This document shows positions 1,244 through 24,301 of a DNA stretch of 64,000 bases, one piece after another. How positions within the stretch are numbered: position 1 is the first letter of the stretch; each line of letters begins with the position of its first letter. The stretch lies in the NCBI GenBank assembly GCA_010093815.1, contig ML996572.1; one strand, written 5' to 3'. The DNA is from Pseudovirgaria hyperparasitica (Eukaryota). A model generated the notes under the pieces. It did not search any database. It was not told where the DNA came from and saw nothing but the letters and a program-made list of their open reading frames with translations. The position numbers and the translations under genes are program-made.

Positions 1244-1471
1244 TGTAAGAATAGGGTAGTTAGATAGTAGTGTAGCCAGATAGAATAATAGGGTGTATTC
1301 TATTATAGAACGAATTACTACCGAACCCTTTCGGTAGGAATCCGAGAGTATATATATAAAGGGACGCCGATCTATCTAGCACGTAACTATTTACCACCCT
1401 TCACGTTACCTCCTAACCCTATTAGCTAAGGTACGTATAGGTCGAGTCCTACCTAAGGCTAAGTCCTAATA
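1244..1471 (-). repeat. A1 3' LTR
   Basis: Direct repeat of 8402-8629. Confidence 0.95.
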
Positions 1472-2043
1472 ATTATCCCTTCCCTCTAGGAAGCTACCCT
1501 TAGCGACCTAGATCATTATCTATCCCTATATCCCTATCCTAAGTCTTATAAGACCTTAGTCGTTCTCCATGCTTCGTCTTAGATACTTACCGATATTCGC
1601 CGATCTAAGATTCACACAAGCGTTTTCCTAACAAACTAGATTTTAGTCTATCTTAACTTCTCCCCTAGGTGAGATTACCTAATTAGGCCTAGCGTATTAT
1701 GTAATGTGATTAGGTAAGCCCGGGTGCTACCTATATCAAAATCTTTTCTTAGAAATATTCCTTTCTTTAAAAAACCTCTTAACTCTTTATAGAGTTTTTT
1801 AGATTATTAGGTATATCACCCGATCCTTATAGACATAGATTTATATAGATTTACTATAATTTAGTACGATTTACGTAATTTACTGATTTTCGTGCCGTCC
1901 TTAGCTAGTAATAATATAATTCGTAATAATCCGCATAAATTAATAATAATTATAATATGGTTTCCCGAAATCTCGACACTCTAAAGCAATCGGCGCGGAA
2001 ATAGGCGCCTTCGAATAATCCCTGTCTTACATACGTCACCGAC

Positions 2044-2938
2044 ATGTCGAAAGCCATTAATCTACCCCGACCTAGGCCGGGCTCTAATAATCTAGCCATA
2101 TATTATTATGGTTATCGCTTTCCGTTGTACATTACTTACGGTAGTACTAAATCTATGATATACGGTACTTACATGACTAAGAAGCGTTATTACTTATAGG
2201 TATTTAAGTAAGTTTAAAGAACTTTACGTAGATTCACTTATATCGGTGTAGATTACTACTAGGCCTCTAGTAACCCCTACCGATAAGGAGCGTGGTACTA
2301 CTAATCGCAACGCCTTAGAGAAGGCTTTCTACGAGCTATATACCTAAGATAAGGGTTACGCCTAGGAGTACGATTCTAATAAGATCCGTAAGGGTTTATC
2401 GGAATCTACTATAGCTATTATTACCGCGATTACTAGGTAATATCGTTTTTCTTAAATCGTTATAGATTCTTACTAATATATATTAATCTCTATAATAGTG
2501 CTAAAATCTCTACCACTTCGGACTTCTTTCTATATACCGGCGATATTAAAATTCCTAGAAAAGGTTCTAGTAAAAAGGCTAAGGTTCCTTCCTCGCGCGT
2601 GCTAAAGAGCCGTAAATTTAGGGAAGATGGCTCTAATCTAGAAGTTTCTACACTAACGGTATGTGGTTCTATACCGATCGTTGAATCTTTTCGCTGATTT
2701 ATATAATTCTTAGCGTGCCCGCGCCGGTCCGTCCCTCTCTATCCCGGGTCCCGCCGCTCCGTAGGTTTCTATAGAGGAGTTTATAGCTATAAGGCGCGCT
2801 ATATAGAATTTATAGCGTCGGAACGAAAGGCTAGAGACTTATATTATAAAGCTCTATACTATGCTAAATAAGAACTAGCGGAAGGAATTAGATAGAACCA
2901 TCGCGGTGATTAGTACTTCTACTCCTACTCCGACTTAA
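2044..2938 (+). pseudogene. Antisense accessory gene of Gypsy family A (exons 2044-2199, 2252-2436, 2499-2658, 2714-2938; ~241 aa; Zn2Cys6-like N-terminus, coiled-coil C-terminus), RIP-damaged
   Basis: Starts at ATG; three GT..AG introns of 52, 62 and 55 nt; exons join in frame. Internal stops are all TAA/TAG, as expected from RIP of CAA/CAG/TGG. Confidence 0.8.
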
Positions 2939-3334
2939 TTAGTTTAGATCTACACCGATTAGTACTAATATGTCTCTTTTATCTGGCGTTTTTGGTTTTT
3001 TCGGTTTTAATTTTAAAGCGATCTTATTTCTTCTAGATAGATTAGTACGAGTTTATATAGATCTATATAGATCTTTATATTTTCTTTTAGCTTTCTTAAT
3101 TTTATCTTTCTTTAATAATAACTTCTTTAATCTTTTTAGTAATCTATACCGATCTATACCAATCGGTACCGATTTTCGATGTCCATTTCTCTTAGTAAAT
3201 CATTTTTCTAAGTCTCTTTTTTAGTTAAATTTTTTAAAGTTCTAAGTTCGAACTTTCTAAGGAAGTTCCTTAATTCCTTAGAATGTTTTAAAGATCTATA
3301 TCTCTTTCACCTTCTTCCTTTTAGGCGGCCGTCC

Positions 3335-6300
3335 TTAGCACCAAACTATACTAAAAAACGTCGAATCGCCGTACTTTAGCATAATTCTCTGCGATTCCGC
3401 GGCTTCCTTTACTAATCGCTACTCATATACTAATATCGCTACTTTACTAATGTTTATTGTAGGTTCCTAAGTATCTTCGTTAGGATTATACCCTTTCTAA
3501 TAAATTTTATATAGCCACGTACTATCTTCGGCACGTTATTAGCCTAGTATCTACTTAACTTCGTAGATATCCGCACCTCCTTACGTAACTACTTTATATA
3601 ATGTCTATTCGGAACGATCCGGCAACGATAAGGCATGGAATGGCTCGAGAAGCGTAATATGGAACACATTATATATCTTTAACGTGGGAGGGAGTTTCAA
3701 CTTATACGCCTGGTTATTAATTACACGAGTAACCTTAAATGGACCTATCATCGTGTAGTTAAGCTTCTTCTTCGGCCTAATACTACGAATATTCTTACTA
3801 TTTAGTAAAACTTTATCTCTAATATTAAAGATTATAGGCTTTCTACCCTTATCATGGTGCGATTTACTATAATCTATAGCATCTTATAATAACTTTATAA
3901 CGCTTCTTTGCGTTTAGAATAGTTCTATTATAATCTCCGTCGCCTTAACGTTAGGCTACTCTAATTTATACTAAGTTCCTATAAACTACGCTTTATGGTT
4001 TCGACCGAAGTTTGCTTCGAACGGACTTACGTGGGTTAACGCATGTCGGCTATTATTATACGCGAATTCCGCGATATAGACTAACCTTACCTAGTTATCT
4101 TGCTTATAGTTATAATATACGCGTAAATACGCCTTAACTATCTGATTCTACCGCTCTATCTACCTATCTATTTATAGGTGGAACGCGGTGCTAAGTTTCC
4201 GCTTAATTCCTAGCGTATAGTAGAAATCCTTCTAAAACTTAGACGTTATCTACGGACCTCTATCCGAAACTATGCCGTTTAGTATACTATAGAGCCGAAC
4301 TACGTCACGAAGTAGTATATCTATAAGATCCGGTACTTAGATCGTCTTTCTTATAGGGATATAGTATAACATCTTTATAAATCTATCTAGAACTACGAGT
4401 AAACTATTATAAACATACCTAAGATACTTACTTAGGGGTAGATCTGTGATGAAATCCATCGACAATTCCTTCCATGCTTCCTTTAGCATAGGTAATGGCC
4501 TTAATTCGCTATATGGCAAGTGTCTATACACTTTCGTATGCTGGTAAACGTTATACGTTTTTACGTAGTCTTTCATATATTTATGAAGACCCGGCTAGTC
4601 GTACATCCTTCGGATTAAATCGACCGTCCTTATAACGCTGAAGTGCCCTACTAACGCGTAATCGTGCTATTCCCTTAAAATATTAATTTATAAGCCGCCT
4701 TCCGGCACGTAGAGTCGGCCTTAGAAGTAGATCGCGTCTAATCGTCGTTCCTACCTTAATAACCATAGCGGATCTATAGCGCTTCCTTTTATACTCATGA
4801 CTTTCTTTACTAATATATCGGAATTCTAGGTAGATTTAATCAAGTCTTCGAGGATTTGCTCTATTTCTTAGATATTAGTTTAGATTACTTGATACCCGCT
4901 CTAATTCCCGCGGAGAGTCGCCGAAAGTGTCCTGGCTTCCGGCACTCTATTAGATAACTAGTCTTTTAGTATCTATAGTATAGTATAGTCTAAATTACAC
5001 CGACTATCTACGTTATTCTACGACGATTTCTCGTAATCTTCACGCCGTAATAGAGAATCTGCTTTATTCTCTCTTCTAGCTTTATGTGAGATTTTAAAGT
5101 TAAATATTAATATCTACTTAGCCCAACGTACTTATCGGCGATTAAGGACCTTAGTCGATATAAAGTAACGTAGATTTGCGTGATCCGATAATAATTTAAT
5201 CTAATATATAGAGCCTTCTAAATAATATTACTATTACTTAAAACTCTTAATAATTATAAGTAGTTCCTGGTCGTGCGTGTTATAACGCGTCTCTATATCC
5301 GCCATTTTACGGGAAAAGAAGGCGACCGGGTGCTATTACACCTTATCTTTCGTATCTTTATGCGGTTAACTAATGATTCTAGTAATTACGAATCTAGATG
5401 CGTCTATTTCGACCCGAATATGCTTCTTAGGATCGAAATACCTAAGAATCGGCGTAGTTATAAAGTAATTCTTTAATGATCGGAACGCATCTCGCGCTTC
5501 CGGCGTTAACTATATCTCGACCGACTTAGCTTTACGCTATGCTCGCCCACCTATAGGGATTTTACCGCCATTTTCGGTGAGTTTATTAAGCGGCGCCGTA
5601 ATTCGTGAGAAACCTATAATGAATTTACGATAATAGTTTACGAAACCTATAAACGTCCTGATTTAACGTATAGTAGTAGGTTCTAGCCATTCTATAATGG
5701 TCTTGACACGCTCTAGCTCTATTTTAAGGCCGCTGTGTGTTATAATAAAGCCGAGAAACCCAACTTCTTATTAGTAAAACTTATATTTAGACAACTTTGC
5801 GTAGAGTTTATGCTGTCTTAAACGATTTAGCACCAATTTCACGTGTTCTTCGTGATTCTACATGCTATCGGAGTAAATTAGTATATTATTAAGGTAAACT
5901 ACGTAGATTACATTAAGTAATCCTATAAGTGTAGTATTAATGTATCCTTAGAACGCTCCTAGCGCATTTATTAGCCTAAACGGCACAATAGTATACTTAA
6001 AATAACCATATCTGGTCCGAAATGCGGTTTTCCACTTATCTCCGCGACGGATTCGAAGCCGGTAATATATATCTCGTAAATCTAGCTTCGTAAAGTACTT
6101 TGCCTTCGTTAATTAGTCTAAAGATTTACTAACTAATAGTAATGGGTGACGATTCTTCTTAGTCACCGCATTTAGTACTTGATAGTCGACGCATAGACGT
6201 AAACTTCCGTCTTTCTTCTTCACGAAGAGAATAGGTACGCCGGCTAATAACGTACTATGACGTATCTAGCCTCTTCCGAGATATTCTTTAATATATTTAT

Positions 6301-7060
6301 AAAGAACTTTAAGTTCTAGTCTCGAAAGTAGGTAAAGTAGACTATAAGGGACGTCTACTCCCTCTTCGAGCTTGATCTTTAGCTTATACGGCCTATGGTT
6401 AGGGAGAAGTGACGCGTCTTCTACCGAAAACACATCCGTATACTACGAATATACGTTAGGTAGCGTGTCTTTACCCTGATTATTACCATCCTCTTCGTCT
6501 TCGTCGACGATCGATAGGGATATAAGATAGATTAGTAACGATCGGGTCCGCACGGCGAGGTTCTATGCCTCCTTACTAATAGTTACGACTTACTAGTATA
6601 ATTTACCGCGATGTCGACGGAACGTTAATGTCTCCTTCTAAAAATCGAGGATTGGGTTTAGGCGTTTAAGCTAAGGCATCCCTAGAATTATATTCTATTA
6701 GCTAATATTAGCCACAATAAATTTATTAGACATCTACTATTTTATTATCTTTAAGTTATGAACTTCGTAATTCGTTATAGTTTTATCTAAAGTTCTAACT
6801 TCATGTCCATTAACTACGATGGTTTAGCTAACTTTGCCGAGATCGTACGATAATCTATACTCCTTAGCGAGAATCGACGAAATATAGTTATCTTCTATAC
6901 TAGTGTCCACGAGGGCCTATATAGTTTTATTACCATTTACTATGGGTAATAATACTTTTAGTAATATTAGGTCTTTACTCGCCGGAAGGCGCTACGGCTC
7001 CTCCTAAGTATATATAATTTAGCTAAGAACGCGGTTAGGTCTCGCGTACTAGCCTATTCT
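3335..7060 (-). pseudogene. pol: A1 pol (PR-RT-RH-IN-chromodomain), RIP-damaged
   Basis: Integrase motif WKELSMDFITDLP (ORF 4337-4576); RT motifs KTAFRTRYG and YLN/DD; chromodomain YEV..IL...Y.I.(W)KGY...DT(W)EP at ~3440-3580. Confidence 0.9.
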
Positions 7061-8385
7061 TTTTTCGGATTCTTATAGTTAGGCGAAATATATCCCTTTT
7101 CTCTATACTTATAGTAATAAAGTGCGCTATGATCCTACTATTTTGCGATAGGCGTTATATTTAAGCCTGTGCCTTATCCTTTTCCGCGTTGGGAACCACC
7201 GTCTCGATTATTTTAGTGTCCTCTTAACGCGTTTCTACCCCGATTTACGCTCTTCTAGCGTTAATCGCGGTAAGGTTACTCTTAATCGAACGTATTCGAT
7301 CGACCTCGTTTCTAACCCGTATAGGGTTCGTCGGTTTTACCTAGAGAGCCGCGTTCCTTAAGGATGCGGTAGTGTTCGTTAGCTTTCTCCTCTAATTCGT
7401 GTAGATAGTTAAAACTTAATAATACTATTCCTAATCTTTCGCGGATTAACGGGAGTAGTACTTCGCGAAACTAGAATATACGAATATTTTCCTATAGTAT
7501 AGGGATATTATCCTAGAGGTTTTATAGGTATTATAGTAGTTAAGTAGATGTCTAGTTCGGTCGTTGTGCCACGCTTCTTAACTTAGATAGTGCCTTTCTT
7601 TCGCGTTCTCCGTTAGTTCCGAGGGTATTTAGTATAAATATAGCTAAATGTTCCTAGGTTATCGCTGATAGTGGCTTGACTTCCTTCTATCTATCCTATT
7701 AATCGCGGGATTATAAACCTAAGTAACGTTCTCCGAATAAAATGCGTTATACTTCGGTAGAAAAGAGCATAGGGTTATTAAGGAAGTACTTCTCGTAGTC
7801 TCTCTTCTAATCTTTCCACTCCTTTTAGTTCTTCCCTATAAATATAGTCGGATCTTTAGATTTCGGCACACCTAAGGAAGGAGTAGGGTAAATTGGTAAC
7901 GAAGCGGCCGGGTATATAGTGGATTATCGCAACTCTAATGGTAGGTAAACTAATTCCGCCTAAATTAGTATAGGAAGTCGTCTACCTTCTATCGTTCCGC
8001 GTAGTCTTTTAAGAGACTCGTTAAGTTCTCGTCGTTTTGCGAGGAGTTTCGCACGTTCGGTCTATTCTTTAAGGATCTATATCTCTCGGGCTTAATTAGC
8101 GATATACTCCTATAGTTCGGCGATTAATGGTTGTGATTCCTCGTGTAGCTCTACCACGACTCGTTATCTAGCTTCCTATCGTAGGAAGTCGCTTAGTATA
8201 TCCACTATTTCCTTATTAGAAAGTTCCGTGATTCGGTCGGACATCTCCACTTCTCTATTAAGAACGGCCGGATTTAATGCCGATTATAGAGGATCCCTGT
8301 TATTTAATATAGTGTTGCTTGTCCCTATAGTGGATCGTGTCGACCTTCTTGGTTCTAGTTAGACTATCTTAACTATAGTACTATA
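7054..8385 (-). pseudogene. gag: A1 gag with C-terminal CCHC knuckle
   Basis: De-RIPed CYKCGEKGHISPNC at ~7075-7120, then PKKE-stop with A-AAA-AAG. Start position approximate. Confidence 0.75.
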
Positions 8386-8401
8386 TGGGTAGTAATTCGA
8401 A

Positions 8402-8629
8402 TGTAAGAATAGGGTAGTTAGATAGTAGTGTAGCCAGATAGAATAATAGGGTGTATTCTATCATAGAACGAATTACTACCGAACCCTTTCGGTAGGAATC
8501 CGAGAGTATATACACAAAGGGACGCCGATCTATCTAGCACGTGACTATTTACCGCCCTTCACGTCACCTCCTAACCCTGTTAGCTAAGGTACGTGCAGGT
8601 CGAGTCCTGCCTAAGGCTAAGTCCTAACA
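8402..8629 (-). repeat. A1 5' LTR
   Basis: tgtaagaat...gtcctaaca, direct repeat of 1244-1471. Confidence 0.95.
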
Positions 8630-9587
8630 TAAAGTTACTATAAGATACTATAAATTATAGTAAATTATACTATAATAAGGGTAGAAAACCTATAATCTTT
8701 AATATTAGGGATAAAGTTTTACTAAATAGTAAGAATATTTATAGTATTAGACTAAAGAAGAAGCTTAACTATATAATAATAGATCTATATAAGATTACTT
8801 ATATAATTAATAACTAGACGTATAAGTTATAACTCCCTTATATATTAAAGATATATAATATATTCTATATTACGCTTCTCGAGCCATTTTATACCTTATT
8901 ATTACTAGATTATTCTAAATAGATACTATATAAAGTAGTTATATAAGAAGGTATAGATATCTATAAAGTTAAGTAGATACTTAGCTAGTAACGCGCTAAA
9001 GATAGTATATAGCTATATAAGATTTATTAGAAAGAATATAATTCTAATAAAGATACTTAGAAATCTATAATAAATATTAGTAAAGTAGTAATATTAGTAT
9101 ATAAGTAGTAATTAGTAAAGAAAGCTACGGAATCGTAGAGAATTATACTAAAGTATAGTAATTTAATATTTTTTAGTATAGTTTAGTACTAAGAACGGCC
9201 GTCTAAAAGGAAGAAGGTAAAAGAGATATAGATCTTTAAAATATTCTAAGGAATTAAGGAACTTCCTTAGAAAGTTTAAACTTAGAACTTTAAAAAATTT
9301 AACTAAAAAGAAGACTTAGAAAAATAATTTACTAAGAGAAATAGATATTAAAAATTAGTACTAATTAGTATAGATCGGTATAGATTACTAAAGAGATTAA
9401 AGAAGTTATTATTAAAGAAAGATAAAATTAAGAAAGCTAAAAGAAAATATAAAGATCTATATAGATCTATATAAACTTATACTAATCTATCTAGAAGAAG
9501 TAAGATTACTTTAAAATTAAAACTAAAAAACTAAAAACGCTAGATAAAAGAGATATATTAGTACTAATTAGTATAGATCTAAACTAA

Positions 9588-10482
9588 TTAAGTTAGAGTA
9601 GAAGTAGAAGTACTAATTACCGTGATAATTATATCTAATTCCTTCTACTAGTTCTTATTTAGTATAGTATAGAGCTTTATAATATAAGTCTCTAGCCTTT
9701 TATTCTAATACTATAAATTCTATATAGCGCGCCTTATAGCTATAAACTTCTCTATAGAAATCTATAGAGCGGCGGGACCTAGAATAGAGAGAGATAGACC
9801 GGCGTAGATACGCTAAGAATTATATAAATTAGCGAAAAGATTTAATAATTAGTATAGAACTATATACCTTTAGTATAGAAACTTCTAGATTAGAGCTATC
9901 TTCTCTAAATTTATAGCTCTTTAGCACGCACGAGAAAGGAACCTTAGCCTTTTTACTAGAATCTTTTCTAGGAATTTTAATATCGCTAGTATATAGAAAG
10001 AAGTCTAAAGTAGTAGAGATTTTAGTACTATTATAGAGATTAATATATATTAGTAAGAATCTATAATAATTTAAGAAAAACGATATTACCTAGTAATCGC
10101 GGTAATAATAGCTATAGTAGATTCTAATAAATCCTTATAGATGTTATTAGAATTATACTCCTAGGCGTAACTCTTACCTTAGATATATAGTTTATAGAAA
10201 GCCTTCTCTAAGGCGTTATAATTAGTAGTACTATACTTCTTATTAGTAGAGGTTACTAGAGGCCTAGTAGTAATCTATACTAATATAAGTAAATCTATAT
10301 AAAGTTCTTTAAACTTACTTAAATACCTATAAGTAATAACGCTTCTTAGTTATATAAGTACTATATATTATAGATTTAGTACTACCGTAAGTAATATACG
10401 ACGGAAAGTAATAACTATAATAATATATAGCTAGATTATTAGAGTCCGGCCTAGGTCAGGGTAGATTAATAGCTTTTAATAT
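9588..10482 (-). pseudogene. Antisense accessory gene copy in A0
   Basis: Reverse complement of 2044-2938, same 895-bp span, more heavily RIPed. Confidence 0.75.
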
Positions 10483-10772
10483 ATTAGTAATATATATAAG
10501 ATAGGGATTATTTAAAGGCGCCTATTTCTATAATAATAATAATAATAATAATATTAGTAAACTAGGTAGAGTACCACTCTATAGGCGCATACCTCCTCTA
10601 GTCTAAGCTACTATATAAGAAGAAACCTATAAATAGGAAAAACTCCCTTATATCTATAACTACGCTCTATCTATCCTCTCGTTCTTTATATATATATAGC
10701 CCTAGGGGCTATCTATAGGCCTATAGCCTATATTATAATAGTTTACCCTTAGGTAGCACGTATAGATACGGA

Positions 10773-10807
10773 GATTATTAGTTAAGGGCTACCCTTAACT
10801 AATAATC
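10773..10807. repeat. L2 3' palindrome
   Basis: gattattagttaaggg-cta-cccttaactaataatc. Confidence 0.95.
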
Positions 10808-13800
10808 GCGGTTCTCCCGGGGTTCTTCCGATATATACCGGGGTTCTTCTAGTATATATCGGGCTTCTTCTAGTATATATATACGGGTCTACTAGAACTA
10901 GGGGAGAGGAAGGTATATAAGTATCTATCGGGCGACGTCCTTAGAGTACTTATTAAGCTATTATATAATATCGGAGGTTCTCGTTATATAGATAAGGGCT
11001 TATCTTAGAGTATAGAGACTAGAGTACGTCGTAAGGTAGTAGCGTATTATACCTCTCTAGCCGTAGTCCTCGTACTAGAGAGATATATCTAGGATACCTC
11101 TCTAGTAGAGATAATATAGAAGATCTATAGCGCCTATTCGGGCTTAGAGGAGTATAGATGCTTAGGCCTTTATTAGCCCTTTATATATCTATTTACTCGG
11201 TTTCTTCTAAGGCCCTCGGATCTATTCTAGATACCTATTCTATTAGGAGGCCTACTAGGCTTTAAGTACCTCCCTCTATTTATTCTAGATCTATAACTAT
11301 ATAACGCGGCTAAGCTCCTTAGGGCTCTATTAGCTTAGGACGGTATCCGGGTTATTTTAAACCTCCTATATAGTCTAGCTTAAGTCCGCCTCTATATAGT
11401 ATTTATATTATACTTAAGTTTATTCTATAGTAGGGAGGGCCTAGTAATATACGCGGATACGTGTACGTAGTACAGCGAAGGTATATACTCTATCTCCTCT
11501 ACGTTCTTATACTTATTATTTAATAAAGTATATAAGTCTCTATATCTAGTAGAAGTTCTATATACTTATTATATTTATCTCGTGTTAGAGGAGCGTTATA
11601 TTAGTAGCTTTATATACACCGGAGATAAGGCGGAGTATACGGTTTTATATAGACTTAAGCTTTACCCGCTAAGCTTATATAAGGGCTATATACTAGTACT
11701 TGTGTCTATATATAAAGGCTAGGCGTGCTAGAGAGATATATAGCTATCTCGCCTTATCCTAGGCTATTCCCTATATAGATACCGTAATCCGGCGTATAGC
11801 GGTTTCTATCTAGAGGGCTCTAGAGACGCCGTATACTATCTATAGTCCCTATTTTAGCTTATTATTAATTATGATACCGAGTACGCGTATACTCTATGCT
11901 AGTAGTTCTATAAAGGCGTCGATTTAGGGGCGACGTGCCCCCTCCCTAGTAGCCTATTCTCTATAGCGGTTAATAAAGTACATAAGCTAGTATTTTTTAG
12001 GTGCGAATTTTACTCTATAGCGCTTTATCTACTAGACGTATTTCTCGTGGTCTCGTTCGAGTCGTGTATATATTCTACTAGTACTACTATCGACCATAAG
12101 GAGGTATATATCGTCCACGTATCTAACTATCTCTATATATTCTATTCTCTAAAGGAGGTCTACTATAAAGAAGAGGAAGAGAATCGGGGAGATAGTACTC
12201 CCTTACAGGATACCGTATACCATCTCCTTATATTCACTTCAGTATCCAGGAATATATATTTAAGTAGTCCTTTACGCGAGGAAGGACTATATAAATTATA
12301 TAATCTACTTAGGTATTCGCCTTATCCGGAGGTTATAGATAAGTCTTATATAGTTTACCTTATTAAACGCCTCTACTATATCTAGGGAGAGTAGTATAAT
12401 AACTCGTCCTTATTTCTATATAGTCTAGATAACCTTAAGGATATATTAAATAGCTATAATTAGGGAGCTTCCTACCTTCGCCTTCTAGTTTACTAGGAGA
12501 AGGCCGTATACCTATACTACTATACTTATCTTCTTAGTAATTATAGCTTCTAGTACCTTACTAAGGTAGAAGAGGAGGGCGATCGGCCTCTATCCCTTCG
12601 GTATATTTAGACTCTTCCCTAGTTTTAGAAGTATAACCGTATATATAGTTTAGAAGCTCTATAGGTAGTATCCTATACGGGCGCACGCTCGGAATATATA
12701 GCCTATAATTAGTAAGGTCGCCTATATAGTTCTCTTAAGGCATCGATTCGGAATTCTATCTAGCCTAGGCGCTTTATCGTTCGGGAGTATCTTAATAGCG
12801 CCGAGTATATCGTCCTCCGTGATTTCTCTAGGGATACTTATAGCTTCCGGGTATTCCGTGCTATTAATATCTAATAGGTCTATAGGTTCTAGGAGAGGTA
12901 ATATAACCTCTTATAGAATCTCTATTTTCTCAAGGCTCGTGGAGTATGTCTTTTCTTAATATATAAGGGGAGGTATAAGTGGTGTAGGTGTCGGGGAGGC
13001 GGTGCTTTTGGCCTATTTTACTATATACTATAGTCTAGTAGTATTACGTGTATATCTATCTATAACTATATACTACTATTTATATTACTCGTTACGGAGG
13101 ACCTTATCTTATTATCTTCTCGCCTCTCTCTATTTATCCTATACTTTAGGTATATGGTTATAGTATACGCGTATATATAATCTCTAGACTTCTCGCCTAT
13201 GCTCTTATACTTAAGGTATACTTTTCGGGTCTAGGGGTCTATATATTTAGTACGGCACGTGTTTATCTCTTACTCCCTAGTACGCCTATAGAAGTATATT
13301 CACGGCCTAGTCGATGGCCGGGCCATTAGATACGTCGACTATAGACGGGTCTAGGATCGTCGATTCTAGGTCCTTTAGGTACTTTTCCTAGTTAGTATCC
13401 TTCTATAGCTATTACCCTCGTTAGTCTTAAGGGGTAGATACGTCTATTACGGTCTCTATATATTTATAGTCGGAGTCTATCTATATAAGGCTTAGGCGGT
13501 AGTATTAAGTCCTATTATAAATATATCTAGTGGCTAGGGTAAGGTCGAGTGTAGATCCGCCCTTATCTTATTTATATTTTCGCTAGGTAATCTATTCTAC
13601 TAGTATAAGAAGGTATAGGAAGCCGTAGTATTAGATATATAGTTCTCTAGCTTAAAGCTCTTCGCGGGTAATAGTTAGTCTACCCTACTAGCTATAATAG
13701 AGGTTAAAGTCTCCTAGGAGGATATATTATCCTAGCTCGGTAGTACCCTTAAGCATGTTATCTACCTAAAGTAATCGGTTCTAATTATATATATTATATA

Positions 13801-14123
13801 TATAGAGGGGTCCGATATTTATCTAGAGGTGTAGTATTATTTAGAGGTTATTCCGTTTAGTATACGACTATAATAAGAGTAGAATAGACTTATAGATATG
13901 GAAGAGGACTCTCCTCTCCGGTCCTAGGGGGTGTATTATATAATATCCTAGGTGTATTATTAGTTTATTTATCTAGTAGTATTTATATAGCTCCTATATA
14001 GCGAGTATTACAGCTCCGGTCTCCTCGAGGAGTATTACCTAGTTCTTACGTTTATACTATACGTTTACCTATATAATTAGGAGTATATCTTGGTCTCTTA
14101 TTAGGTACTAGGGAATATATAGG

Positions 14124-17100
14124 TGTAAGAATAGGGTAGTTGGATAGTAGTGTAGCCAGATGGAACAATGGGGTGTATTCTATTATAGAACGAATTACTA
14201 CCGAACCCTTTCGGTAGGAATCCGAGAGTATATATATAAAGGGACGCCGATCTATCTAGCACGTAACTATTTACCGCCCTTCACGTCACCTCCTAACCCT
14301 ATTAGCTAAGGTATATATAGATCGGGTCCTACCTAAGGCTAAGTCCTAATAATTATCCCTCCCCTCTAGGAAGCTACCCTTAGCGACCTAGATCGTTACC
14401 TATCCCTATATCCCTATCCTAAGTCTCGTAAGACCTTAGTCGTTCTCTACGCTTCGTCTTAGATACTTACCGATATTCGCCGATCTAAGATTTACATAAG
14501 CGTTTTCCTAATAAACTAGATTTTATCCATCTTAACTTCTTATATAGGTGAGATTGCCTAATTAGGCCTAGCGTATTACGTGATATGATTAGGTAAGCCC
14601 GGGTACTACCTATATTAAAATCTTTTCTTAGAAATATTCCTTTCTTTAAAAAACTTCTTAACTCTTTATAGAGTTTTTTAGATTATTAGGTATATTACCC
14701 GATCCTTATAGATATAGATTTATATAGATTTACTACTATTTAGTGCGATTTACGTAATTTACTAATTTTCGTACCGTCCTTAGCTAGAAATAACATAATT
14801 CGTAATAATCCGTATAAATTAATAATAATTATAATATAGTTTCCCAAAATCTCGACGCTCTAAAGTAATTAGCGCGGAAATAGGCGCCTTCGAATAATCC
14901 CTATCTCGTATATGTTACCGACATGTCGAAAGCCATCGATCTACCCCGACCTAGGCCGGGCTCTAATAATCTAGCTATATATTATTATGGTTGTCGCTTT
15001 CCGTCGTATATTGCTTACGGTAGTACTAAATCTATAATATACGGTACTTATATAACTAAGAAGCGTTATTACTTATAGGTATTTAAGTAAGTTCGAAGAA
15101 CTTTACGTAGATTTACTTATATCGGTATAGATTACTACTAGGCCTCTAGTAACCCCTACTAATAAGGAGCGTGGTACTACCGATCGTAACGCCTTAGAGA
15201 AGGCTTTCTACGAGCTATATACCTAAGGTAAGGGTTACGCCTAGGAGTACGATTCTAATAAGATCCGTAAGGGTTTATTAGAATCTACTATAGCTATTAT
15301 TACCGCGATTACTAGGTAATATCGTTTTTCTTAAATTATTATAGATTCTTACTAATATGTATTAATCTCTATAATAGTGCTAAAATCTCTACTACTTCGG
15401 ACTTCTTTCTATATACCGGCGATATTAAAATTCCTAGAAAAGGTTCTAGTAAAAAGGCTAAGGTTCCTTCCTCGCGCGTGCTAAAGAGCCGTAAATTTAG
15501 AGAAGATGGCTCTAATCTAGAAGTTTCTATACTAACGGTATATGGTTCTATACCGATCGTTGAATCTTTTCGCTAATTTATATAATTCTTAGCGTGCCCG
15601 CGCCGGTCCGTCCCTCTCTATCCCGGGTTCCGCCGCTCCGTAGGTTTCTATAGAAGAGTTCATAGCTATAAGGCGCGCTATATAGAATTTATAGCATCGG
15701 AATAAAAGGCTAGAGACTTATATTATAAAGCTCTATACTATACTAAATAAGAACTAGCGGAAGGAATTAGATGCAACCATCGCGGTAATTAGTACTTCTA
15801 CTCCTACTCCGACTTAATCGGTTTAGATCTACACCAATCGGTGCTAATATATCTCTTTTATCTGGCGTTTTGGTTTTTTCGGTTTTAATTTTAAAGCGAT
15901 CTTACTTCTTCTAGATAGATTAGTACGAGTTTATATAGATCTATATAGATCTTTATATTTTCTTTTAGCTTTCTTAATTTTATCTTTCTTTAATAATAAC
16001 TTCTTTAATCTCTTTAGTAATCTATACCGATCTATACCGATCGGCACCGATTTTCGATGTCCATTTCTCTTAGTGAATTATTTTTCTAAGTCTCTTTTTT
16101 AGTTAATTTTTTTTTAAAGTTCTAAGTTCGAACTTTCTAAGGAAGTTCCTCAATTCCTTAGAATGTTTTAAAGATCTATGTCTCTTTCACCTTCTTCCTT
16201 TTAGGCGGCCGTCCTTAGCGCCGAACTATACTAAAAAACATCGAATTACCGTACTTTAGCATAATTCTCTGCGATTCCGCGGCTTCCTTTGCTAATCGCT
16301 ACTTATACGCTAATATCGCTGCTTTACTAATGTATATTACGGGTTCCTAAGTATCTTCGTTAGGATTATACCCTTTCTAATGAATTTTATATAGCCACGT
16401 GCCATCTTCGGCACGTTATTAGCCTAGTATCTACTTAACTTCGTAGATATCCGCACCTCCCTACGTAACTACTTTATATAACATCTATTTAGAATAATCC
16501 GGTAACGATAAGGCATGGAATAGCTCGAGAAGCGTGATATGGAACATATTATATATCTTTAACGTGGGAGGGAGTTTCAACTCATACGCCTGGTCATTGA
16601 TTACACGAGTAACCTTAAATAGACCTATTATCGTGTAGTTAAGCTTCTTCTTCAGCCTAATACTACGAATATTCTTACTATTTAGTAAAACTTTATCTCT
16701 AATATTAAAGATTATAGGCTTTCTACCCTTATTATGGTACGATTTACTATAATCTATAGTATCTTATAATAACTTTATAACGCTTCTTTACGTTTAGAAT
16801 AGTTCTATCGTAATCTCCGTCGCCTTAACGTTAGGCTACTCTGATTTATACTAAGTTCCTATAAACTATACTTTATGGTTTCGACCGAAGTTTGCTTTGA
16901 ACGGACTTACGTGGGTTAACGCATGTCGGCTATTATTATACGCGAATTCCGCGACATAGACTAACCTTACCTAGTTATCTTACTTATAGTTATAATATAC
17001 GCGTAAATACGCCTTAACTATCTAATTCTACCGCTCTATCTACCTATCTATTTATAGGTGGAACGTGGTACTAAGTTTCCGCTTAATTCCTAGTATATAG

Positions 17101-20100
17101 TAGAAATCCTTCTAAAACTTAGACGTTATCTACGGACCTCTATCCGAAACTATACCATTCGGTATACTATAGAGCCGAACTACGTCACGAAGTAGTATAT
17201 CTATAAGATCCGGTGCTTAGATTATCTTCCTTATAGGGATGTAGTATAACATCTTCGTAAATCTATCTAGAACTACGAGTAAACTATTATAAACATACCT
17301 AAGATACTTACTTAGGGGTAGATCTGTGATAAAATCCATCGATAATTCTTTCCATGCCTCATTTAGCATAGGCAATGGCCTTAATTCACTATATAGCAAG
17401 TGTCTATATACTTTCGTATGCTGGTAAACGTTACACGTTTTTACGTAGTCCTTTATATACTTATAAAGACCTAGCTAGTCGTACGTCCTTCGGATTAAAT
17501 CGACCGTCCTTATAACGCCGAAGTGCCCTACTAACGCGTAATCGTGCTATTCCCTTAAAACATCGATTCGTAAGCCGCCTTCCGGCACGTAGAGTCGGCC
17601 TTAGAAGTAGATCGCGTCCGATCGTCGTTCCTACCTTAATAACCACGGCGGTTCTATAGCTATTCTCTTTATACTTATAACTTTCTTTACTAATATATCG
17701 GAATTCTAGGTAGATTTAATTAAGTCTTTAAGGATTTACTCTGTTTCTTGGACGTTAGTTTAGATTACTTAATACCCGCTCTAATTCCCGCGGAGAGTCG
17801 CCGAAAGTGTCCTAGCTTCCGGCACTCTATTAGATAACTAGTCTTTTAGTATCTATAGTATAGTATAGTCTAAATTACACCGACTATCTACGTTATTCTA
17901 CGACGATTTCTCATAATCTTTACGCCGTGATAGAGGATCTGCTTTATTCTCTCTTCTAGCTTTATATAAGATTTTAAAGTTAAATATTAACATCCACTTA
18001 GCCCAACGTACTTATCGGCGATTAAGGACCTTAGTCAATATAAAGTAACGTAGATTTGCGTGATCCGATAATAATTCAATCTAATATACAGAGCCTTCTA
18101 AATAATATCACTATTACTTAAAACTCTTAATAATTACAAGTAGTTCCTGGTCGTACGTGTTATAACGCGTCTCTATATCCGCCATTTTACGGGAAAAGAA
18201 GGCGACCGGGTACTATTACACCTTATCTTTCATATCTTTATACGGTTAACTAATGATTCTAGTAATTACGAATCTAGATGCGTCTATTTCGACCTAAATA
18301 TGCTTCTCGGGATCGAAATGCCTAAGAATCGGCGTAGTTATAAAGTAATTCTTTAACGATCGGAACGTATCTCGCGCTTCCGGCGTTAACTATATCTCGA
18401 CCGACTTAGCTTTACGCTATACTCGCCCACCTATAGGGATTTTACCGCCATTCTCGATAAGTTTATTAAGCGGCGCCGCAATTCGTAAGAAACCTATAAT
18501 GAATTTACGATAATAGTTTACGAAACCTATAAACGTCCTGATTTAACGTATAGTAGTAGGTTCTAGCCATTCTATAATGGTCTTAACACGCTCTAGCTCC
18601 ATTTTAAGGCCGCCGTGTATTATAATAAAGCCGAGAAACCCAACTTCTTATTAGTAAAACTTATATTTAGACAACTTTACGTAGAGTTTATACTGTCTTA
18701 AACGATTTAGCACCAATTTCACGTGTTCTTCGTGATCCTACATGCTATCGGAGTAAATTAGTATGTCATCGAGGTAAACTACGTAGATTACATTAAGTAA
18801 TCCTATAAGTATAGTATTAATATATCCTTAGAACGCTCCTAGCGCATTTATTAGCCTAAACGGCACAATAGTATACTTAAAATAACCATATCTAGTCCGA
18901 AATGCGGTTTTCCACTTATCTCCGCGACGGATTCGAAGCCGGTAATATATATCTCATAAATCTAGCTTCATAAAGTACTTTGCCTTCGTTAATTAGTCTA
19001 AAGATTTACTAACTAATAGTAATGGGTGACGATTCTTCTTAGTCACTATATTTAGTACTCGATAGTCGATGTATAGACGTAAACTTCCGTCTTTCTTCTT
19101 CACGAAGAGAATAGGTACGCCGGCTAATAATATACTACGACGTATCTAGCCTCTTCCGAGATATTCTTCGATATATTTATAAAGAACTTCGAGTTCTAGT
19201 CTCGAAAGTAGGTAAAGTAGACTATAAGGGACGTCTACTCCCTCTTCGAGCTCGATCTTTAGCTTATACGGCCTATGGTTAGGGAGAAGTAACGCGTCTC
19301 CTACCGAAAACACATCCGTATACTACGAATATACGTCAGGTAGCGTGTCTTTACCCCGATTATTACCATCCTCTTCATCTTCATCGACGATCGATAGGGA
19401 TATAAGATAGATTAGCAACGATCGGGTCCGCACGGCGAGGTTCCATGCCTCCTTACTAATAGTTACGACTTACTAGTATAATTTACCGCGATGTCGACGG
19501 AACGTTAATGTCTCCTTCTAAAAATCGAGGATTGGGTTTAGGCGTTTAAGCTAAGGCATCCCTAGAATTATATTCTATTAGCTAATATTAGCCACGATGA
19601 ATTCATTAGACATCTACTATTTTATTATCTTTGAGTTATGAACTTCGTAATTCGTTATAGTTTTACCTAAAGTTCTAACTTTATGTCTATTAACTACAAT
19701 GGTTCAGCTAACTTTACTAAGATCGTATAATAATCTATACTCCTTAGCGAGAATCGATAAAATATAGTTATCTTCTATACTAGTATCCACGAGGGCCTAT
19801 ATAGTTTTATTACCATTTACTATAGATAACGATACTTTTAGTAATATTAGGTCTTTACTCGCCGGAAGGCGCTGCGGCTCCTCCTAAGTATATATAATTT
19901 AGCTAAGAACGCGGTTAGGTCTCGCGTACTAGCCTATTCTTTTTTTGGATTCTTATAGTTAGGCGAAATATATCCCTTTTCTCTATACTTATAGTAATAA
20001 AGTGCGCTATGATCCTACTGTTTTACGATAGGCGTTACATTTAAGCCTATGCCTTATCCTTTTCCGTATTAGGAACCACCGCCTCGATTGTTTTAGTATC

Positions 20101-21509
20101 CTCTTAACGCGTTTCTACCCCGATTTACGCTCTTCTAGCGTTAATCGCGGTAAGGTTACTCTTAATCGAACGTATTCGATCGACCTCGTTTCTAACCCGT
20201 ATAGGGTTCGTCGGTTTTGCCTAGAGAGCCGCGTTCCTTAAGGATGCGGTAGTGTTCGTTAGCTTTCTCCTCTAATTTATATAGATGGTTAAAACTTAAT
20301 AATACTATTCCTAATCTTTCGCGGATTAACGGGAGTAGTACTTCGCGAAACTAGAATATACGAATATTTTCCTATAGTATAGGGATATTATCCTAGAGGT
20401 TTTATAGGTATTATAGTAGTTAAGTAGGTGTCTGGTTCGGTCGTTATACCACGCTTCTTAACTTAGATAGTACCTTTCTTTCGCGTTCTCCGTTAGTTCC
20501 GAGGGTATTTAGTATAAATATAGCTAAATACTCCCAGGTTGTCGCCGATAGTAGCTTGGCTTCTTTCTATCTATCCTATTAATCGCGGGATTATGAACCT
20601 AAGTAACGTTCTCCGAATGAAATGCGTTATACTTCGGTAGAAAAGAGTATAGGGTTGTTAAGGAAGTACTTCTCGTAGTCTCTCTTCTAATCTTTCCACT
20701 TCTTTTGGTTCTTCCCTATAAATATAGTCGGATCTTTAGGTTTCGGCACACCTAAGGAGGGAGTAGGGTAAATTGGTAACGAAGCGGCCGGGTATACGGT
20801 GGATTATCGTAACTCTAATGGTAGGTGAACTAATTCCGCCTGAATTAGTATAGGAAGTCGTCCACCTACTATCGTTCCGCGTAGTCTTTTAAGAGACTCG
20901 TTAAGTTCTCGTCGTTTTGCGAGGAGTTTCGTACGTTCGGTCTATTCTTTAAGGATCTATATCTCTCGGGCTTGATTGGCGATGTGCTCCTGTAGTTCGG
21001 CGATTAATGGTTGTAATTCCTTGTATAGCTCTGCCACGACTCGTTGTCTAGCTTCCTATCATAGGAAGTCGCTTAGTGTATCTACTATTTCCTTATTAGA
21101 AAGTTCCGTGATTCGGTCGAACATCTCTACTTCTCTATTAAGAACGGCCGGATTTAATACCGATTATAGAGGATCCCTGTTATTTAATGTAGTGTTACTT
21201 GTCCCTATAGTGGATCGTGTCGACCTTCTTGGTTCTAGTTGGACTATCTTAACTATAGTACTATATAGGGAGTAATTCGAATGTAAGAATAGGGTAGTTG
21301 GATAGTAGTATAGCTAGATAGAATAATAGGGTGTATTCTATTATAGAACGAATTACTACCGAACCCTTTCGGTAGGAATCCGAGAGTATATATATAAAGG
21401 GACGCCGATCTATCTAGTACGTGACTGTTTACCGCCCTTCACGTCACCTCCTGACCCTGTTAGCTAAGGTACGTGTAGGTCGGGTCCTACCTAAGGCTAA
21501 GTCCTAACA
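14124..21509 (-). mobile_element. Gypsy chromovirus copy A2, full length, inserted near the ORF1/ORF2 junction of L2
   Basis: LTRs at 14124-14351 and 21282-21509; TSD ATAGG at 14119-14123 and 21510-21514; intact RT YLDD codons at ~18765-18777 (minus). Confidence 0.97.
14923..15817 (+). pseudogene. Antisense accessory gene copy in A2
   Basis: ATG at 14923; colinear with 2044-2938; retains a TGT (Cys) codon at 14992. Confidence 0.8.
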
Positions 21510-22953
21510 ATAGGCCTATATATTTATTCCTCTAAGACGCGACTATCCTCGTATAGCGGCAGCCTTAGTAATTCCTTAGGGCTATCCTATTATTAGCTTT
21601 CTCGGGATAGTTTACTATTTCTAACTACTTTCTCGTAAGGAGGTAGTCTATAGTAGTAGTATTATAGTAAAGAGAGGAACGGTAGTAGATTACATTATTT
21701 ATAGCTACCTTACTCCCTTTATCCGGATTAAGTAGATATATTTAGTAATCTATTTGCGTTTCGTGCACGTAGCCGACTACGATAGGTGCTTACTATCGTA
21801 GTTAGAGTACTTCGTCGTATCTCTATCCCTCTAGCCCTCTCCTTATATCCCGTAGGGGTACTTCTAGATACTATATTCTTATTAATACTATCTATACCTA
21901 GTCTTTTAGAAGTACCGCTATACCGTATATCTATATCCCTAATAGTTAAAGTACTATATTATCGCCTATACTCTATCCTATAGTTCCGCTATAAGAAGCT
22001 CCCCTTCTACTAGAAATCCCTCTTACATAATTTAATATACGAGGGCGGGGTCCTTAAGCTCTACTATTATAGTAGAGTATGCCTTTAATCTAGTTTTAAT
22101 CCCTTATATATTCTTCTACTATACTCTTATGATCTTAATCTCTAGGTATTTTTACTCGTTTAACTATTCTATCCGTGTGATATCCTCTTCTCTAATAATC
22201 TATCCGCTTATAGATATAGAGTATATCTATATCGGGTATATGGCCGCTCTAATAGAGGCGCCTAGGAAGATACTACTAATCGCGTTTAGATTACGCGAGA
22301 TAGTCTACTACGCGATATTCGTTATTATAGTAAGTACTACTCCTTCTAGCGTAAGTTTAGCGGTAATAACATTTAACTATATTCCCTTTTATTTATTAAT
22401 CTTACTTACTATATCCTTTAGGGATGCTTACTAGACCTATACTAGGGTATCCTTATCCTAGATTATAACGTATATACTATACGCCACATCACCGGTCCGG
22501 GGGGCCCATAGTATAGCCTCCGGTATTACTACTATTTATACCTATATACTAGGGCGCTTACCTTAAGTAAGTTCCTCCTAGATTCTATATAGACTAGCCT
22601 CTATTCGGTTAAGCCTACCCTCCGGTCCTCCTAGTTATATCTTCTTCTCCTCCTCTATAATTCCCTTTAGATTCTAGATAAGATTCTAGAATATATATAG
22701 AAGGGTCTTCTAGCCCTCTCCGGCTTCCTTCTCTATATATACTACCTAGTAGTTAATATAATCTAGAAGGGTTTCCCCTCTCGGGGTCCCCTTTATTCCG
22801 TCTATCTATAGTAGCGTACGCCTTTAGGTATATTCTATATTTTAGATAGGTGTATAGTTACCCTTAGTAATATCGCTATATAGCCTTTTCTATCGTACCG
22901 GTAGGGGTATATCCGGTATATACTAGGGTATATTAGTGCCTAAGGCCGCTATA

Positions 22954-22986
22954 TTTATTAGTTAAGGGCTACCCTTAACTAATAAA
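22954..22986. repeat. L2 5' palindrome, immediately upstream of ORF1
   Basis: tttattagttaaggg-cta-cccttaactaataaa. Confidence 0.95.
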
Positions 22987-23770
22987 AGGGGGTCGGCGTA
23001 TTAGTATTCTAGTAGCGTGGTCCGTGCCTCTATCTCCGTGAGGATTTTAAGAGGGTATATATATATCTTTATACGGTAATAACGTCTTGGTTTCGACGCT
23101 ATACGTATATACGTGTAGTAGTAGTTAGTATACTCGGTATACTCTATTAATTAAGATATGTATCTCGCTATATTACTCTAAATAGACTAAGTTAGCCTCT
23201 TAGGGATGTAAAAGAAGTTTTGATTTTAAAGTTATCGCCTATTTCTATACTAATTACTTTAGAGCGTTAAGATTTTAGAAAACTATATTATAATTATTAC
23301 TAATTTATATAGATTATTACGAATTATATTATTACTAGCTAAGGATAGTATAAAAATTAGTAAATTATATAAATCATACTAAATTATAGTAAATCTATAT
23401 AAATCTATATCTATAAGGATTAGGTAATATATCTAATAATCTAAAAAACTCTATAAAGAGTTAAGAAGTTTTTTAAAGAAAGGAATATTTCTAAGAAAAG
23501 ATTTTAATATAGATAGTATCTAGGCTTATCTAATTATATTACGTAATACGCTAGACCTAATTAGGTAATCTTATCTATATAAGAAGTTAAGATAGATAAA
23601 ATCTAGTTTATTAGGAAAACGCTTATATAAATCTTAGATTAGTAAATATTAGTAAGTATCTAAGACGAAGTATAGAGAATAACTAAGGTCTTACGAGACT
23701 TAGAATAGGGATATAGAGATAGATAATAATCTAGGTCGCTAAGGGTAGCTTCCTAGAGAGAAGGGATAAT

Positions 23771-23998
23771 TATTAGAACTTAGCCTTAGATAGAACCCGA
23801 TCTATATATATCTTAGCTAATAGAGTTAGAAGGTAACGTAAAGGGCGGTAAATAGTTATATACTAGATAGATTAGCGTCCCTTTATATATATACTCTTAG
23901 ATTTCTACTAAAAGGGTTTAGTAGTAATTCGTTCTATAATAGAATATACTCTATTATTCTATCTAACTATACTACTATCTAATAACTCTATTCTTATA
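23771..23998 (+). repeat. A0 3' LTR
   Basis: 228-bp reverse complement of the A LTR, preceded by PPT agagagaagggataat. Confidence 0.93.
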
Positions 23999-24301
23999 CT
24001 AATAGACTAATACTTAGAGTTTCTAGGCCCTGGAACCCTTAGAAAATTATCTAGTATACTTATAGCTAAAACTTCTCACACCCCAACGGACTAAACTGGT
24101 TAATTCGGGGTAAAACAGCGATTTACATACATTAAACGATAGAGTATACCGAGTATAATAACCTCCGACATACGTGCGTACGTGTAGCGTATAATACGCG
24201 ACGATACCAACGTGTAGAGATACTATATATATACGCTCGAAGACTCTTCGATAACACGAGCATAGACTATATCTAATAAACGCCGACACGCCGACCCCCT
24301 T

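Follow-up and report, generated by a model that had tools for sequence, protein, structure and literature searches.

Whether a retrotransposon that has been destroyed by mutation once carried a gene on the strand opposite gag and pol is the question raised by a stretch of 64,000 nt of contig ML996572.1 from the fungus Pseudovirgaria hyperparasitica (assembly GCA_010093815.1), hereafter referred to as the window. An earlier note, made from the sequence alone, had placed such a gene at positions 2044–2938, with three introns and a product described as a Zn2Cys6-like protein with a coiled coil. The candidate lies on the plus strand, opposite to pol (minus strand), between the end of pol and the 3' long terminal repeat (LTR; 1244–1473) of one copy of an element that we call family A. 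Comparison with the sequences of related elements suggests that the region between pol and the 3' LTR of family A probably holds a relic, inactivated by repeat-induced point mutation (RIP), of a member of an antisense accessory gene family that is still intact in relatives. The exact three-intron model is doubtful, and nothing functional is left of the antisense gene in the window.

The window divides into an AT-rich block of repeats at 1–57 kb, with a guanine plus cytosine (GC) content of 0.25–0.42, and normal DNA at 57–64 kb with a GC content of 0.46–0.53. The repeats are confirmed to be RIP-mutated: in the first copy of family A (A1) the ratio TpA/ApT is 1.48 and (CpA+TpG)/(ApC+GpT) is 0.37, as compared to 0.69 and 1.27 in the host part, and the two-state sites among copies A1–A3 comprise 852 transitions vs. 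65 transversions. Self-comparison gives three full copies of family A (A1 at 1244–8629, A2 at 14123–21511 and A3 at 48376–55761), each about 7.39 kb long with LTRs of about 230 bp, as well as a broken, inverted copy, A4, in pieces at 8629–10528, 23236–24000 and 810–1244. The breakpoints between 810 and 24000 also reveal nested insertions, in that A1 sits within A4 (which continues at 810–1244 and 8629–10528), and the A4 spacer is split near 2000 (A1 numbering) by 10528–23236, an insert holding a further repeat, C1, which is itself split by A2.

In A1, the 3' LTR (1244–1473, minus strand, about 230 bp) forms a direct repeat of 95.6% identity with the 5' LTR (8402–8627, minus strand). RIP-degraded pol occupies 3350–7975 on the minus strand, with 84 stops in 1542 codons, and encodes protease, reverse transcriptase, RNase H, integrase, SH3_Tf2-1 and a chromodomain-like end. 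The Pfam matches of A1 (gag-asp_proteas, RVT_1, RT_RNaseH, Integrase_H2C2, rve and SH3_Tf2-1) all fall in one minus-strand frame, and the other five of the six frames have no Pfam match. The last of these domains reaches to about 3634, and the chromodomain-like sequence stops at about 3410; what A has of a chromodomain is a conserved C-terminal stretch only, without a Pfam match, and PF00385 is annotated on nearly all of its pol relatives. By its LTR pair and domain order, family A is a RIP-inactivated Ty3/Gypsy chromovirus. The internal spacer from the chromodomain end of pol to the 3' LTR (1474–3400, about 1.9 kb) has no Pfam match in six frames, and in A1 a purine-rich tract on the minus strand appears to adjoin the 3' LTR. 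Rfam gives no family at gathering score for the spacer (only mir-9457 at an E-value of 0.84, far below that score), and its tandem and inverted repeats show nothing telling. With tblastx we find no paralogue of it elsewhere in the window (best E 0.23), so the spacer of family B, a second chromovirus of the window, is not detectably homologous to that of A.

The individual features that the earlier note reported within the spacer are all present. An ATG at 2044 opens four exons (2044–2199, 2252–2436, 2499–2658 and 2714–2938, plus strand) which, spliced together in frame, amount to 726 nt (241 codons), and the three introns of 52, 62 and 55 nt have the donors GTATTT, GTAATA and GTATGT, with TAG acceptors in all four A copies. 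Candidate exon 1 (2044–2199) starts with Met, continues into a Tyr/Cys cluster and is stop-free up to a final TAG in A1 and A2. RIP turns TGY (Cys) into TAY (Tyr), and the GAL4-type cluster is Cx2Cx6Cx5-12Cx2Cx6-8C; the putative former six-Cys cluster (2104–2193, plus strand, codons 21–50) reads Y/C-x2-C-x7-Y-x7-Y-x2-Y-x6-Y, with Tyr codons in place at 2104, 2113, 2137, 2161, 2170 and 2191, the second of which is still TGT in A2. It lies 630–720 nt inside the LTR edge. Candidate intron 1 (2200–2251; GTATTT..TAG) has a weak consensus without a CTRAY branch motif and without G at +5. Exon 2 (2252–2436) contains two in-frame stops common to all copies, and its proposed frame has the best coding-potential score of the six. 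Intron 2 (2437–2498; GTAATA..TACTAAT..TAG) was also picked by an unbiased path search over the whole spacer (stop cost 15, intron cost 5). Exon 3 (2499–2658) encodes a basic segment and has no stop in any of the four copies. Intron 3 (2659–2713; GTATGT..CTGAT..TAG) has the best consensus of the three, and its donor is GTATAT in A2–A4, as expected from RIP of GTATGT. Exon 4 (2714–2938) is Pro-rich and then runs into a helical, heptad-like segment, with four internal stops and a terminal TAA.

The candidate is found with the same structure in all four family-A copies of the window. The second copy (A2, 14923–15817, plus strand) keeps TGT at codon 24 and GAT at codon 6, the third (A3, 49173–50067, plus strand) has the same exon/intron structure, and the A4 fragment (9588–10482, minus strand) is the most heavily RIPed, its ATG now being ATA. 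All differences in splice signals between copies are of RIP type (GTATGT to GTATAT, GTGTAG to GTATAG). The candidate exons have a GC content of 0.37–0.46 vs. 0.19–0.33 for the introns, and 8 stops are counted in the 241 codons of the proposed frames as compared to 15–30 in the other five, although both the low stop count and the GC contrast are partly inherent in how such a model is drawn.

The evidence that carries our reading comes from other elements. The integrase-chromodomain part of pol retrieved 431 relatives, an alignment of 13 of which was used to fetch loci, and the 50 chromovirus loci obtained through pol (8 from viral_contigs and 42 on contaminant contigs in bacterial genome bins) are for the most part not RIPed, so that their open reading frames (ORFs) are plainly readable. 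An antisense six-Cys ORF lies between pol and the 3' LTR in 8 of the 50 (L018, L033, L046, L028, L009/L020, L037 and L041), the majority of which are intact. The 211-residue ORF of L018 carries C-x2-C-x7-C-x8-C-x2-C-x8-C. The Cys spacing is 2-11-10-2-6 in L009 and L020 (381 and 355 residues), 2-11-8-2-6 in an antisense open frame of 150 codons in L028, 2-6-8-2-6 in exon 1 of the antisense gene of L033, and 2-6-10-2-6 in L046, where the ORF belongs to the second, inverted copy of the element. The last two loci are of RIP-like composition: L037 has canonical cluster spacing with two Tyr among the six positions, and L041 has a cluster of three Cys and three Tyr about 300 nt inside the 3' LTR. The strict six-Cys pattern is rare in this material: translation of the 50 loci gives 791,638 residues, in which it has seven matches, five in the antisense context between pol and LTR and the other two in a low-complexity stretch of L015. 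The claim of an antisense gene between pol and the 3' LTR, which is not provable from the window alone, is thus supported by these 8 of 50 relatives.

Three members (L018, L033 and L046) were aligned in full. In each the cluster starts at residue 28–30, the helix begins within some 10–20 residues of the end of the cluster, and the coding sequence is 500–640 nt long (about 165–210 residues). The antisense ORF and the 3' end of the pol ORF share 104 nt in L018 and 86 nt in L033. The ORF of L033 stops after 77 codons, and removal of a 48-nt intron (GTAAGT..CTGAT..CAG, 8995–8948, minus strand) leads to a product of 196 residues; the intron splits a Trp codon (T|GG), and this Trp aligns with L018 and L046, as does the helical part. 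L033 provides a genuine and clean case of an antisense intron in a retrotransposon, which bears out the expectation that antisense introns survive retrotransposition. In L018 and L046 the antisense ORF can be read without any intron. A difference of about 300 bp (7168–7256 vs. 12405–12702) separates the two copies of the L046 element where the antisense ORF lies; the first has lost a portion of it, and the accessory gene is therefore subject to loss inside a single family.

In a FastTree phylogeny of pol, the carriers of the cluster gene fall in at least four clades, and A1 groups with B1 (the first copy of family B), L041 and L049 with support of 98–100; L049 is too degraded to read. The loci L009–L050 are eukaryotic chromovirus contigs in assemblies labelled as bacterial genome bins. 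Among them, L043, L045 and L049 are on a single 5.8-Mb contig labelled Trueperaceae, with a GC content of 0.18–0.30 and a (CpA+TpG)/(ApC+GpT) of 0.02–0.73, which is extreme and RIP-like, and this contig looks like fungal DNA filed under a bacterial name. Scans of viral_contigs with single antisense proteins gave no locus in one case and one weak locus in the other.

The family layout (L018, L033, L046) is an N-terminal C-x2-C-x6-11-C-x8-10-C-x2-C-x6-8-C followed by a long helix region. Pairwise alignments of the clusters have E-values of 0.003–0.015, and a hidden Markov model (HMM) of four members scores the fifth at 9.7–26.5 bits. PUT3 is a Zn2Cys6 protein with a coiled-coil dimerization element, and the best PDB matches of the family profile are to PUT3, at rank 1 (1ajy, E 0.19) and rank 3 (1zme, E 0.39), with cluster and helix both aligned; these E-values are not significant and so provide a lead on the kind of protein rather than proof of Zn2Cys6 membership. 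Pfam Zn_clus gave no match to ten ORFs of relatives at E up to 1. Strict Zn2Cys6 membership of the family is unproven, and a GAL4/PUT3-like protein seems the most likely kind.

Structure prediction is consistent with a pairing helix. AlphaFold2 models L018 with one long helix at residues 69–150 at a predicted local distance difference test (pLDDT) above 90, and with the cluster at low confidence (52–65). A two-copy model of L018 residues 25–155 scored 0.56 vs. 0.00 for the best control. Among proteins of solved structure, 21 of 30 pairs and none of 23 single chains attain this mark (17 of 29 and none of 30, respectively, for eukaryotes). At least 91% of contacts were common to the two-copy runs, with a partner pLDDT of at least 81, and the predicted contacts (89 with 107, 82 with 110) suggest an antiparallel dimer. 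By our reading of the sequences, L018 and L033 have acidic, hydrophobic tails that resemble activation domains. The Atlas contains the L018 protein letter for letter, and the clusters nearest to it (0.93–0.94; 122, 90 and 62 members; 192–214 residues) are nameless and commonest in Ascomycota; exact cluster look-ups for the family likewise returned no names. A search for CGG-N-CCG sites in the LTRs of four relatives found none.

The anatomy of the element, the action of RIP, the features at their coordinates and the gene family of the relatives are thus shown, whereas for family A the descent from this antisense cluster family, the exact exons and the function are inferred. In its layout A fits the family: it has an antisense reading within the spacer, a Met followed by a cluster at codon 21, a heptad-like segment downstream and a coding sequence of similar size. 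If its Tyr were Cys, the loops of A would be 2/7/7/2/6, against a family range of 2/6-11/8-10/2/6-8. The mixtures of Cys and Tyr in L041 and L037, together with their RIP-like composition, are the very state postulated for A. In addition, a RIP-aware local alignment, which scores a mixture over the possible pre-RIP codons (and which replaced a scoring by the best ancestor per codon that was too permissive, with medians of 94–205), ranks exon 4 of A3, A1 and A2 at positions 1, 5 and 8 of 2850 bins when the L046 protein is used as query.

A number of observations weigh against this descent. The second long loop of A (x7) is one residue shorter than in any relative, the heptad-like segment is separated from the cluster by about 130 residues instead of following it directly as in L018, L033 and L046, and the intron positions differ from that of L033. 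Cys is attested at only one of the six cluster positions, and there only in A2. All seven internal stops of the A1 frames, to which the terminal one is added, are found in all four copies, which is expected after RIP. G at donor +5 is usual in filamentous fungi, and two of the three candidate donors lack it; the best paths of a later spliced-path search use introns other than intron 2. The grouping of A1 in the pol tree involves members (A1, B1, L041 and L049) that are all of odd composition, which can pull rows of a tree together. The earlier note's claim of a Zn2Cys6-like protein accordingly stands in part, in that relatives have antisense six-Cys clusters, and falls short where A fails the canonical spacing through its second gap of 7, where Zn_clus matches neither A nor the relatives, and where one Cys of six is seen; only A4 among the copies has a canonical Y/C match, and one Tyr of that match goes back to an Arg codon. 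The helical segment and coiled coil fare similarly, since a helix region follows the cluster in L018, L033 and L046 and that of A is displaced by some 130 residues.

Similarity searches with A's own sequence add to these points. Translations of the four copies, with stops read as X, gave no match in word-based protein searches, and an exhaustive profile search of 1.84 billion protein representatives with the frame of exons 2 and 4 returned nothing (for the frame of exons 1 and 3, the protein search was word-based). Metagenome scans with the alignment of exons 1 and 3 and with the integrase-chromodomain alignment found nothing, and the Atlas had no usable match for exon 3. Pfam on A at E up to 10 gave no Zn_clus and only DUF7802 (E 0.16–0.52). 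In tblastn and tblastx comparisons of A's exons with the 50 chromovirus loci, nothing was better than E 0.1. Direct comparison with the family is no more favorable: BLASTP of A2 exon 1 against L041 has an E-value of 8.2; the family HMM gives A exon 1 with all Tyr as Cys −0.6 to −1.5 bits (about rank 13–21 of 79, with decoys reaching 5.4), and with Cys at the six positions 7.5 bits, under the 9.7 of the weakest member; and RIP-aware scans with L018, L033, L009, L028 and a three-sequence profile place no A exon among the best 12–15. These tests have low power, since true members that are left out score only 9.7–26.5 bits themselves.

The principal alternative is that the spacer is non-coding and that the gene is a chance reading, created by the enrichment through RIP of TA and hence of GTA, TAG, CTAAT and Tyr codons. 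We consider this unlikely, although much of what the window itself provides agrees with it. If any TAA or TAG may be explained away as what was once Gln or Trp, there is hardly a place where no spliced ORF could be constructed. Per kb, GTA occurs 25.6 times in the RIPed part vs. 9.5–11.4 in the host part, YAG 45 vs. 27–31 and CTRAY 5.8 vs. 2.3, so GT..AG signals are inflated 1.5- to 2.5-fold by RIP, and the three-intron model, which rests on such signals, is unproven. Tyr makes up 8.0–8.7% of residues in all six RIPed frames (Cys 0.5–0.9%), and the relaxed Tyr spacing (second gap 6–7) is matched 17 times in RIPed DNA, several times outside family A. We searched for spliced paths by dynamic programming, allowing up to three GT..AG introns of 45–75 nt, and over 374 windows of real DNA the score has a mean of 88 and a standard deviation of 32. 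The candidate window scores 144–159, compared to 152–157 for antisense gag and 180–183 for the family B spacer, and control strands yield longer and cleaner paths (antisense gag 235 codons with 2 stops in A2 and 209 codons with 1 stop in B1). An alternative path in the same 900 nt has 174 codons and no stop, the proposed model itself scores 35, and with GTA/YAG introns only the candidate window ranks 32 of 374. A coding model (periodic Markov, trained on family B pol) ranks the proposed frame first of six in only one of the four exons, exon 2, but this model is weak, since it prefers the true frame over the other five in just 17 of 25 control windows. The absence of a homologue in our searches and the stops common to all copies also favor chance. 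Pooling the copies to undo RIP, which had been suggested as a check, came out negative, with none of the eight A1 stops (terminal included) resolved by A2 or A3, 8 of 9 stop sites in the candidate exons common to the three copies, and Tyr kept at 5 of 6 codons. With three copies such a test is powerless here: pol itself has no more than 9 of its 84 A1 stops resolved, and 75 of its 118 stop sites are common to the copies. Sites of transversion type are not numerous enough to help (2 in the candidate exons and 9 elsewhere in the spacer; 13/5/21 by codon position in pol). On these grounds the openness and the GT..AG signals of the candidate are not demonstrably beyond chance in RIPed DNA. What speaks against a chance reading includes the motif of exon 1, which is moderately beyond chance: the family-range Tyr/Cys motif has 24 matches in six frames of the RIPed 57 kb, six of them stop-free, and five of the six stop-free ones are in the four A copies, the other being at 12290, i.e., two independent loci. 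By a rough estimate from one decoy in about 68,000 non-redundant residues, some 0.03 chance matches would be expected in the antisense spacer of A. The motif is thus nearly unique in the window and is located where the relatives have their cluster, and the layout that the earlier note had proposed for A from sequence alone (antisense, a Cys cluster at the N-terminus and a helix further on) fits the relatives that were retrieved subsequently. The plus strand of the spacer also beats most dinucleotide shuffles, 8 of 300 of which reach its best spliced path, and the minus strand does not (102–110 of 300).

Given a real relic, the gene model could still be another one, with exon 1 joined to a later helical exon, with fewer introns or with a different end, and with exons 2 and 3 intronic or non-coding. 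We hold this to be a minority possibility, on a par with the exact three-intron model itself. It would accommodate the helix that follows the cluster after about 10–20 residues in L018, L033 and L046, their coding sequences of 500–640 nt and the intronless L018 and L046; exons 1 and 4 of A are mutually in frame (exons 2 and 3 together are 345 nt), and two of the three donors are poor. Exon 2, however, has the best coding-potential score of the four exons, exon 3 is stop-free in all four copies, and longer versions of the protein do exist, with the 355–381 residues of L009/L020. The remaining option, which we judge very improbable, is that the sense strand codes in part of the spacer, either for an extension of pol rich in K/R or for a third ORF in sense orientation, and that the openness of the plus strand is an antisense shadow. 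The pol frame is indeed rather open at 2942–3299 (minus strand), where a K/R-rich stretch beyond the chromodomain has stops about as dense as those of pol, with 7 in 119 codons, only one of them in the last 87, vs. 15 and 11 in the other minus frames; one minus-strand frame is also stop-free across exon 3 (open at 2492–2741), and antisense frames of true coding DNA are fairly open, with 6.5% stops. Further on, the pol frame has 30 stops in 299 codons (2941–2044), the best spliced path of the minus strand is typical of shuffles, and by homology the pol of relatives ends soon after the chromodomain. The K/R-rich stretch ends at a TAA (2941–2939) beside the TAA of the candidate gene (2936–2938). 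It may be a pol tail that converges on the antisense gene, comparable to the overlap with pol in L018 and L033, and equally it may be an effect of T-poor composition.

Taking the relic of an antisense gene as the preferred reading, the way in which it may have operated can be outlined. The gene would be transcribed from its own promoter on the strand opposite the genomic RNA. Antisense introns, shown for L033, lie opposite the genomic RNA and hence cannot be spliced from it, so reverse transcription passes them on. As its product we envisage a DNA-binding factor of small size and GAL4/PUT3-like layout, with a six-Cys cluster, a helix predicted in L018 to pair and, as in L018 and L033, an acidic, hydrophobic tail. 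Its role may have been to regulate, as a dimer that binds DNA, the transcription or chromatin of the very element that encodes it. RIP would then have struck every copy, converting TGY (Cys) codons to TAY (Tyr) and Gln and Trp codons to stops.

Several other features of the window are of interest in their own right. Family B, also RIPed, is present at 24585–32665 (plus strand) and 45232–37192 (minus strand), with a length of 8.08 kb and LTRs of about 236 bp; its pol is 39–40% identical to that of A, and about 2.4 kb lie between pol and the 3' LTR. This interval contains an antisense open stretch of 130–138 codons rich in Ser, Thr, Lys and Arg (31558–31950, minus strand; 37907–38323, plus strand), in which both strands are open; neither a Pfam match nor a Tyr/Cys motif in the family range is present there. 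Two copies of about 74% identity represent family C, a repeat of about 4.5 kb, one at 10783–14121 and 21512–22708, split by the insertion of A2, and the other at 37189–32667. It has no pol similarity and no Pfam match in three plus-strand frames, no other part of the RIPed block has open stretches as long as those it contains (159 codons at 11906–12385), and the sole stop-free Tyr/Cys motif outside family A (12290) belongs to it. In the normal DNA, a host gene at 58813–60186 (plus strand) has an ORF of 457 residues with Fringe-like and DUF604 glycosyltransferase matches, and the ORF of another, at 61998–62738 (minus strand), matches SurE (E 1e-22).

As a general kind, antisense genes situated between pol and the 3' LTR have already been described in plants and in the fungal element Boty. 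The Boty gene, brtn, was reportedly treated by Zhao et al. in 2011 (Virology 417:248), a work known here through the papers that cite it. According to those papers, Boty-like Ty3/Gypsy elements in Botrytis cinerea and Sclerotinia possess brtn in addition to gag and pol; it runs antisense to them in the interval from pol to the 3' LTR and occurs in most copies (PMC7264820, PMC8365987, PMC4227169), and a BRTN-like transcript is reported in Monilinia (PMC5987419). The earlier note, which knew of no characterized equivalent, had overlooked it. As far as the citing papers describe it, brtn shares with our candidate a fungal chromovirus as host element, the position and orientation of the extra gene and its presence in most copies, while no zinc cluster, coiled coil or introns are mentioned in what they say of it, so that the two are likened by description and not by sequence. 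In plants, antisense genes of the class aORF-3R (maize Grande gene23, rice RIRE2, Silene Retand and Phaseolus PvRetro13) are described, in the portion of the source that we draw on, as present in most copies and as having their own promoter, with some products nuclear; their proteins are given there as of unknown function, with no database similarity reported and no zinc cluster described (PMC7264820). They have the position and orientation of the candidate, but they belong to plants and mostly to non-chromovirus lineages.

In terms of the protein, the nearest parallel to the relatives is found in the Zn2Cys6 proteins GAL4 and PUT3, which likewise have six Cys as C-x2-C...C...C-x2-C...C followed by a helix that pairs two chains, and whose canonical 2-6-(8-10)-2-6 spacing is that of L033, L046 and L037. 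GAL4 and PUT3 pair in parallel. The relatives differ from them in that some have first loops of 7–11 residues, the predicted L018 dimer looks antiparallel, and GAL4 and PUT3 are host genes. The published literature, as searched, describes no zinc-cluster protein encoded by a retrotransposon. Our broader proposal, which we advance tentatively and rate somewhat below an even chance, is that several lineages of fungal chromoviruses carry an unnamed conserved antisense gene between pol and the 3' LTR, sometimes with an intron, whose product is a small DNA-binding protein that forms dimers and has a zinc cluster and an acidic tail, with family A as a member killed by RIP and brtn perhaps as another.

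In RIPed genomes such genes escape ORF finders, and degraded copies alone cannot prove them; it was the intact relatives among contaminant contigs of bacterial metagenome bins that made the call possible. HBZ of the human T-cell leukemia virus HTLV-1 is an antisense, spliced basic-zipper regulator encoded opposite the retroviral genome. It resembles the gene proposed here as an antisense accessory regulator near the 3' LTR with a dimerizing helix and its own promoter, an analogy of layout, and it differs in having a basic zipper rather than a zinc cluster, in belonging to a human retrovirus and in showing no homology. Its antisense promoter is placed in the 3' LTR in the part of the review consulted (PMC7264820). 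According to the same review, the antisense extra genes of LTR retrotransposons (Grande, RIRE2, Retand, Boty) have been known for decades with their functions unknown (PMC7264820). If the family described here is indeed a zinc-cluster DNA-binding dimer, these genes would gain a testable role in binding their own LTR or host chromatin, and a retrotransposon could carry its own transcription factor, much as HTLV-1 does with HBZ.

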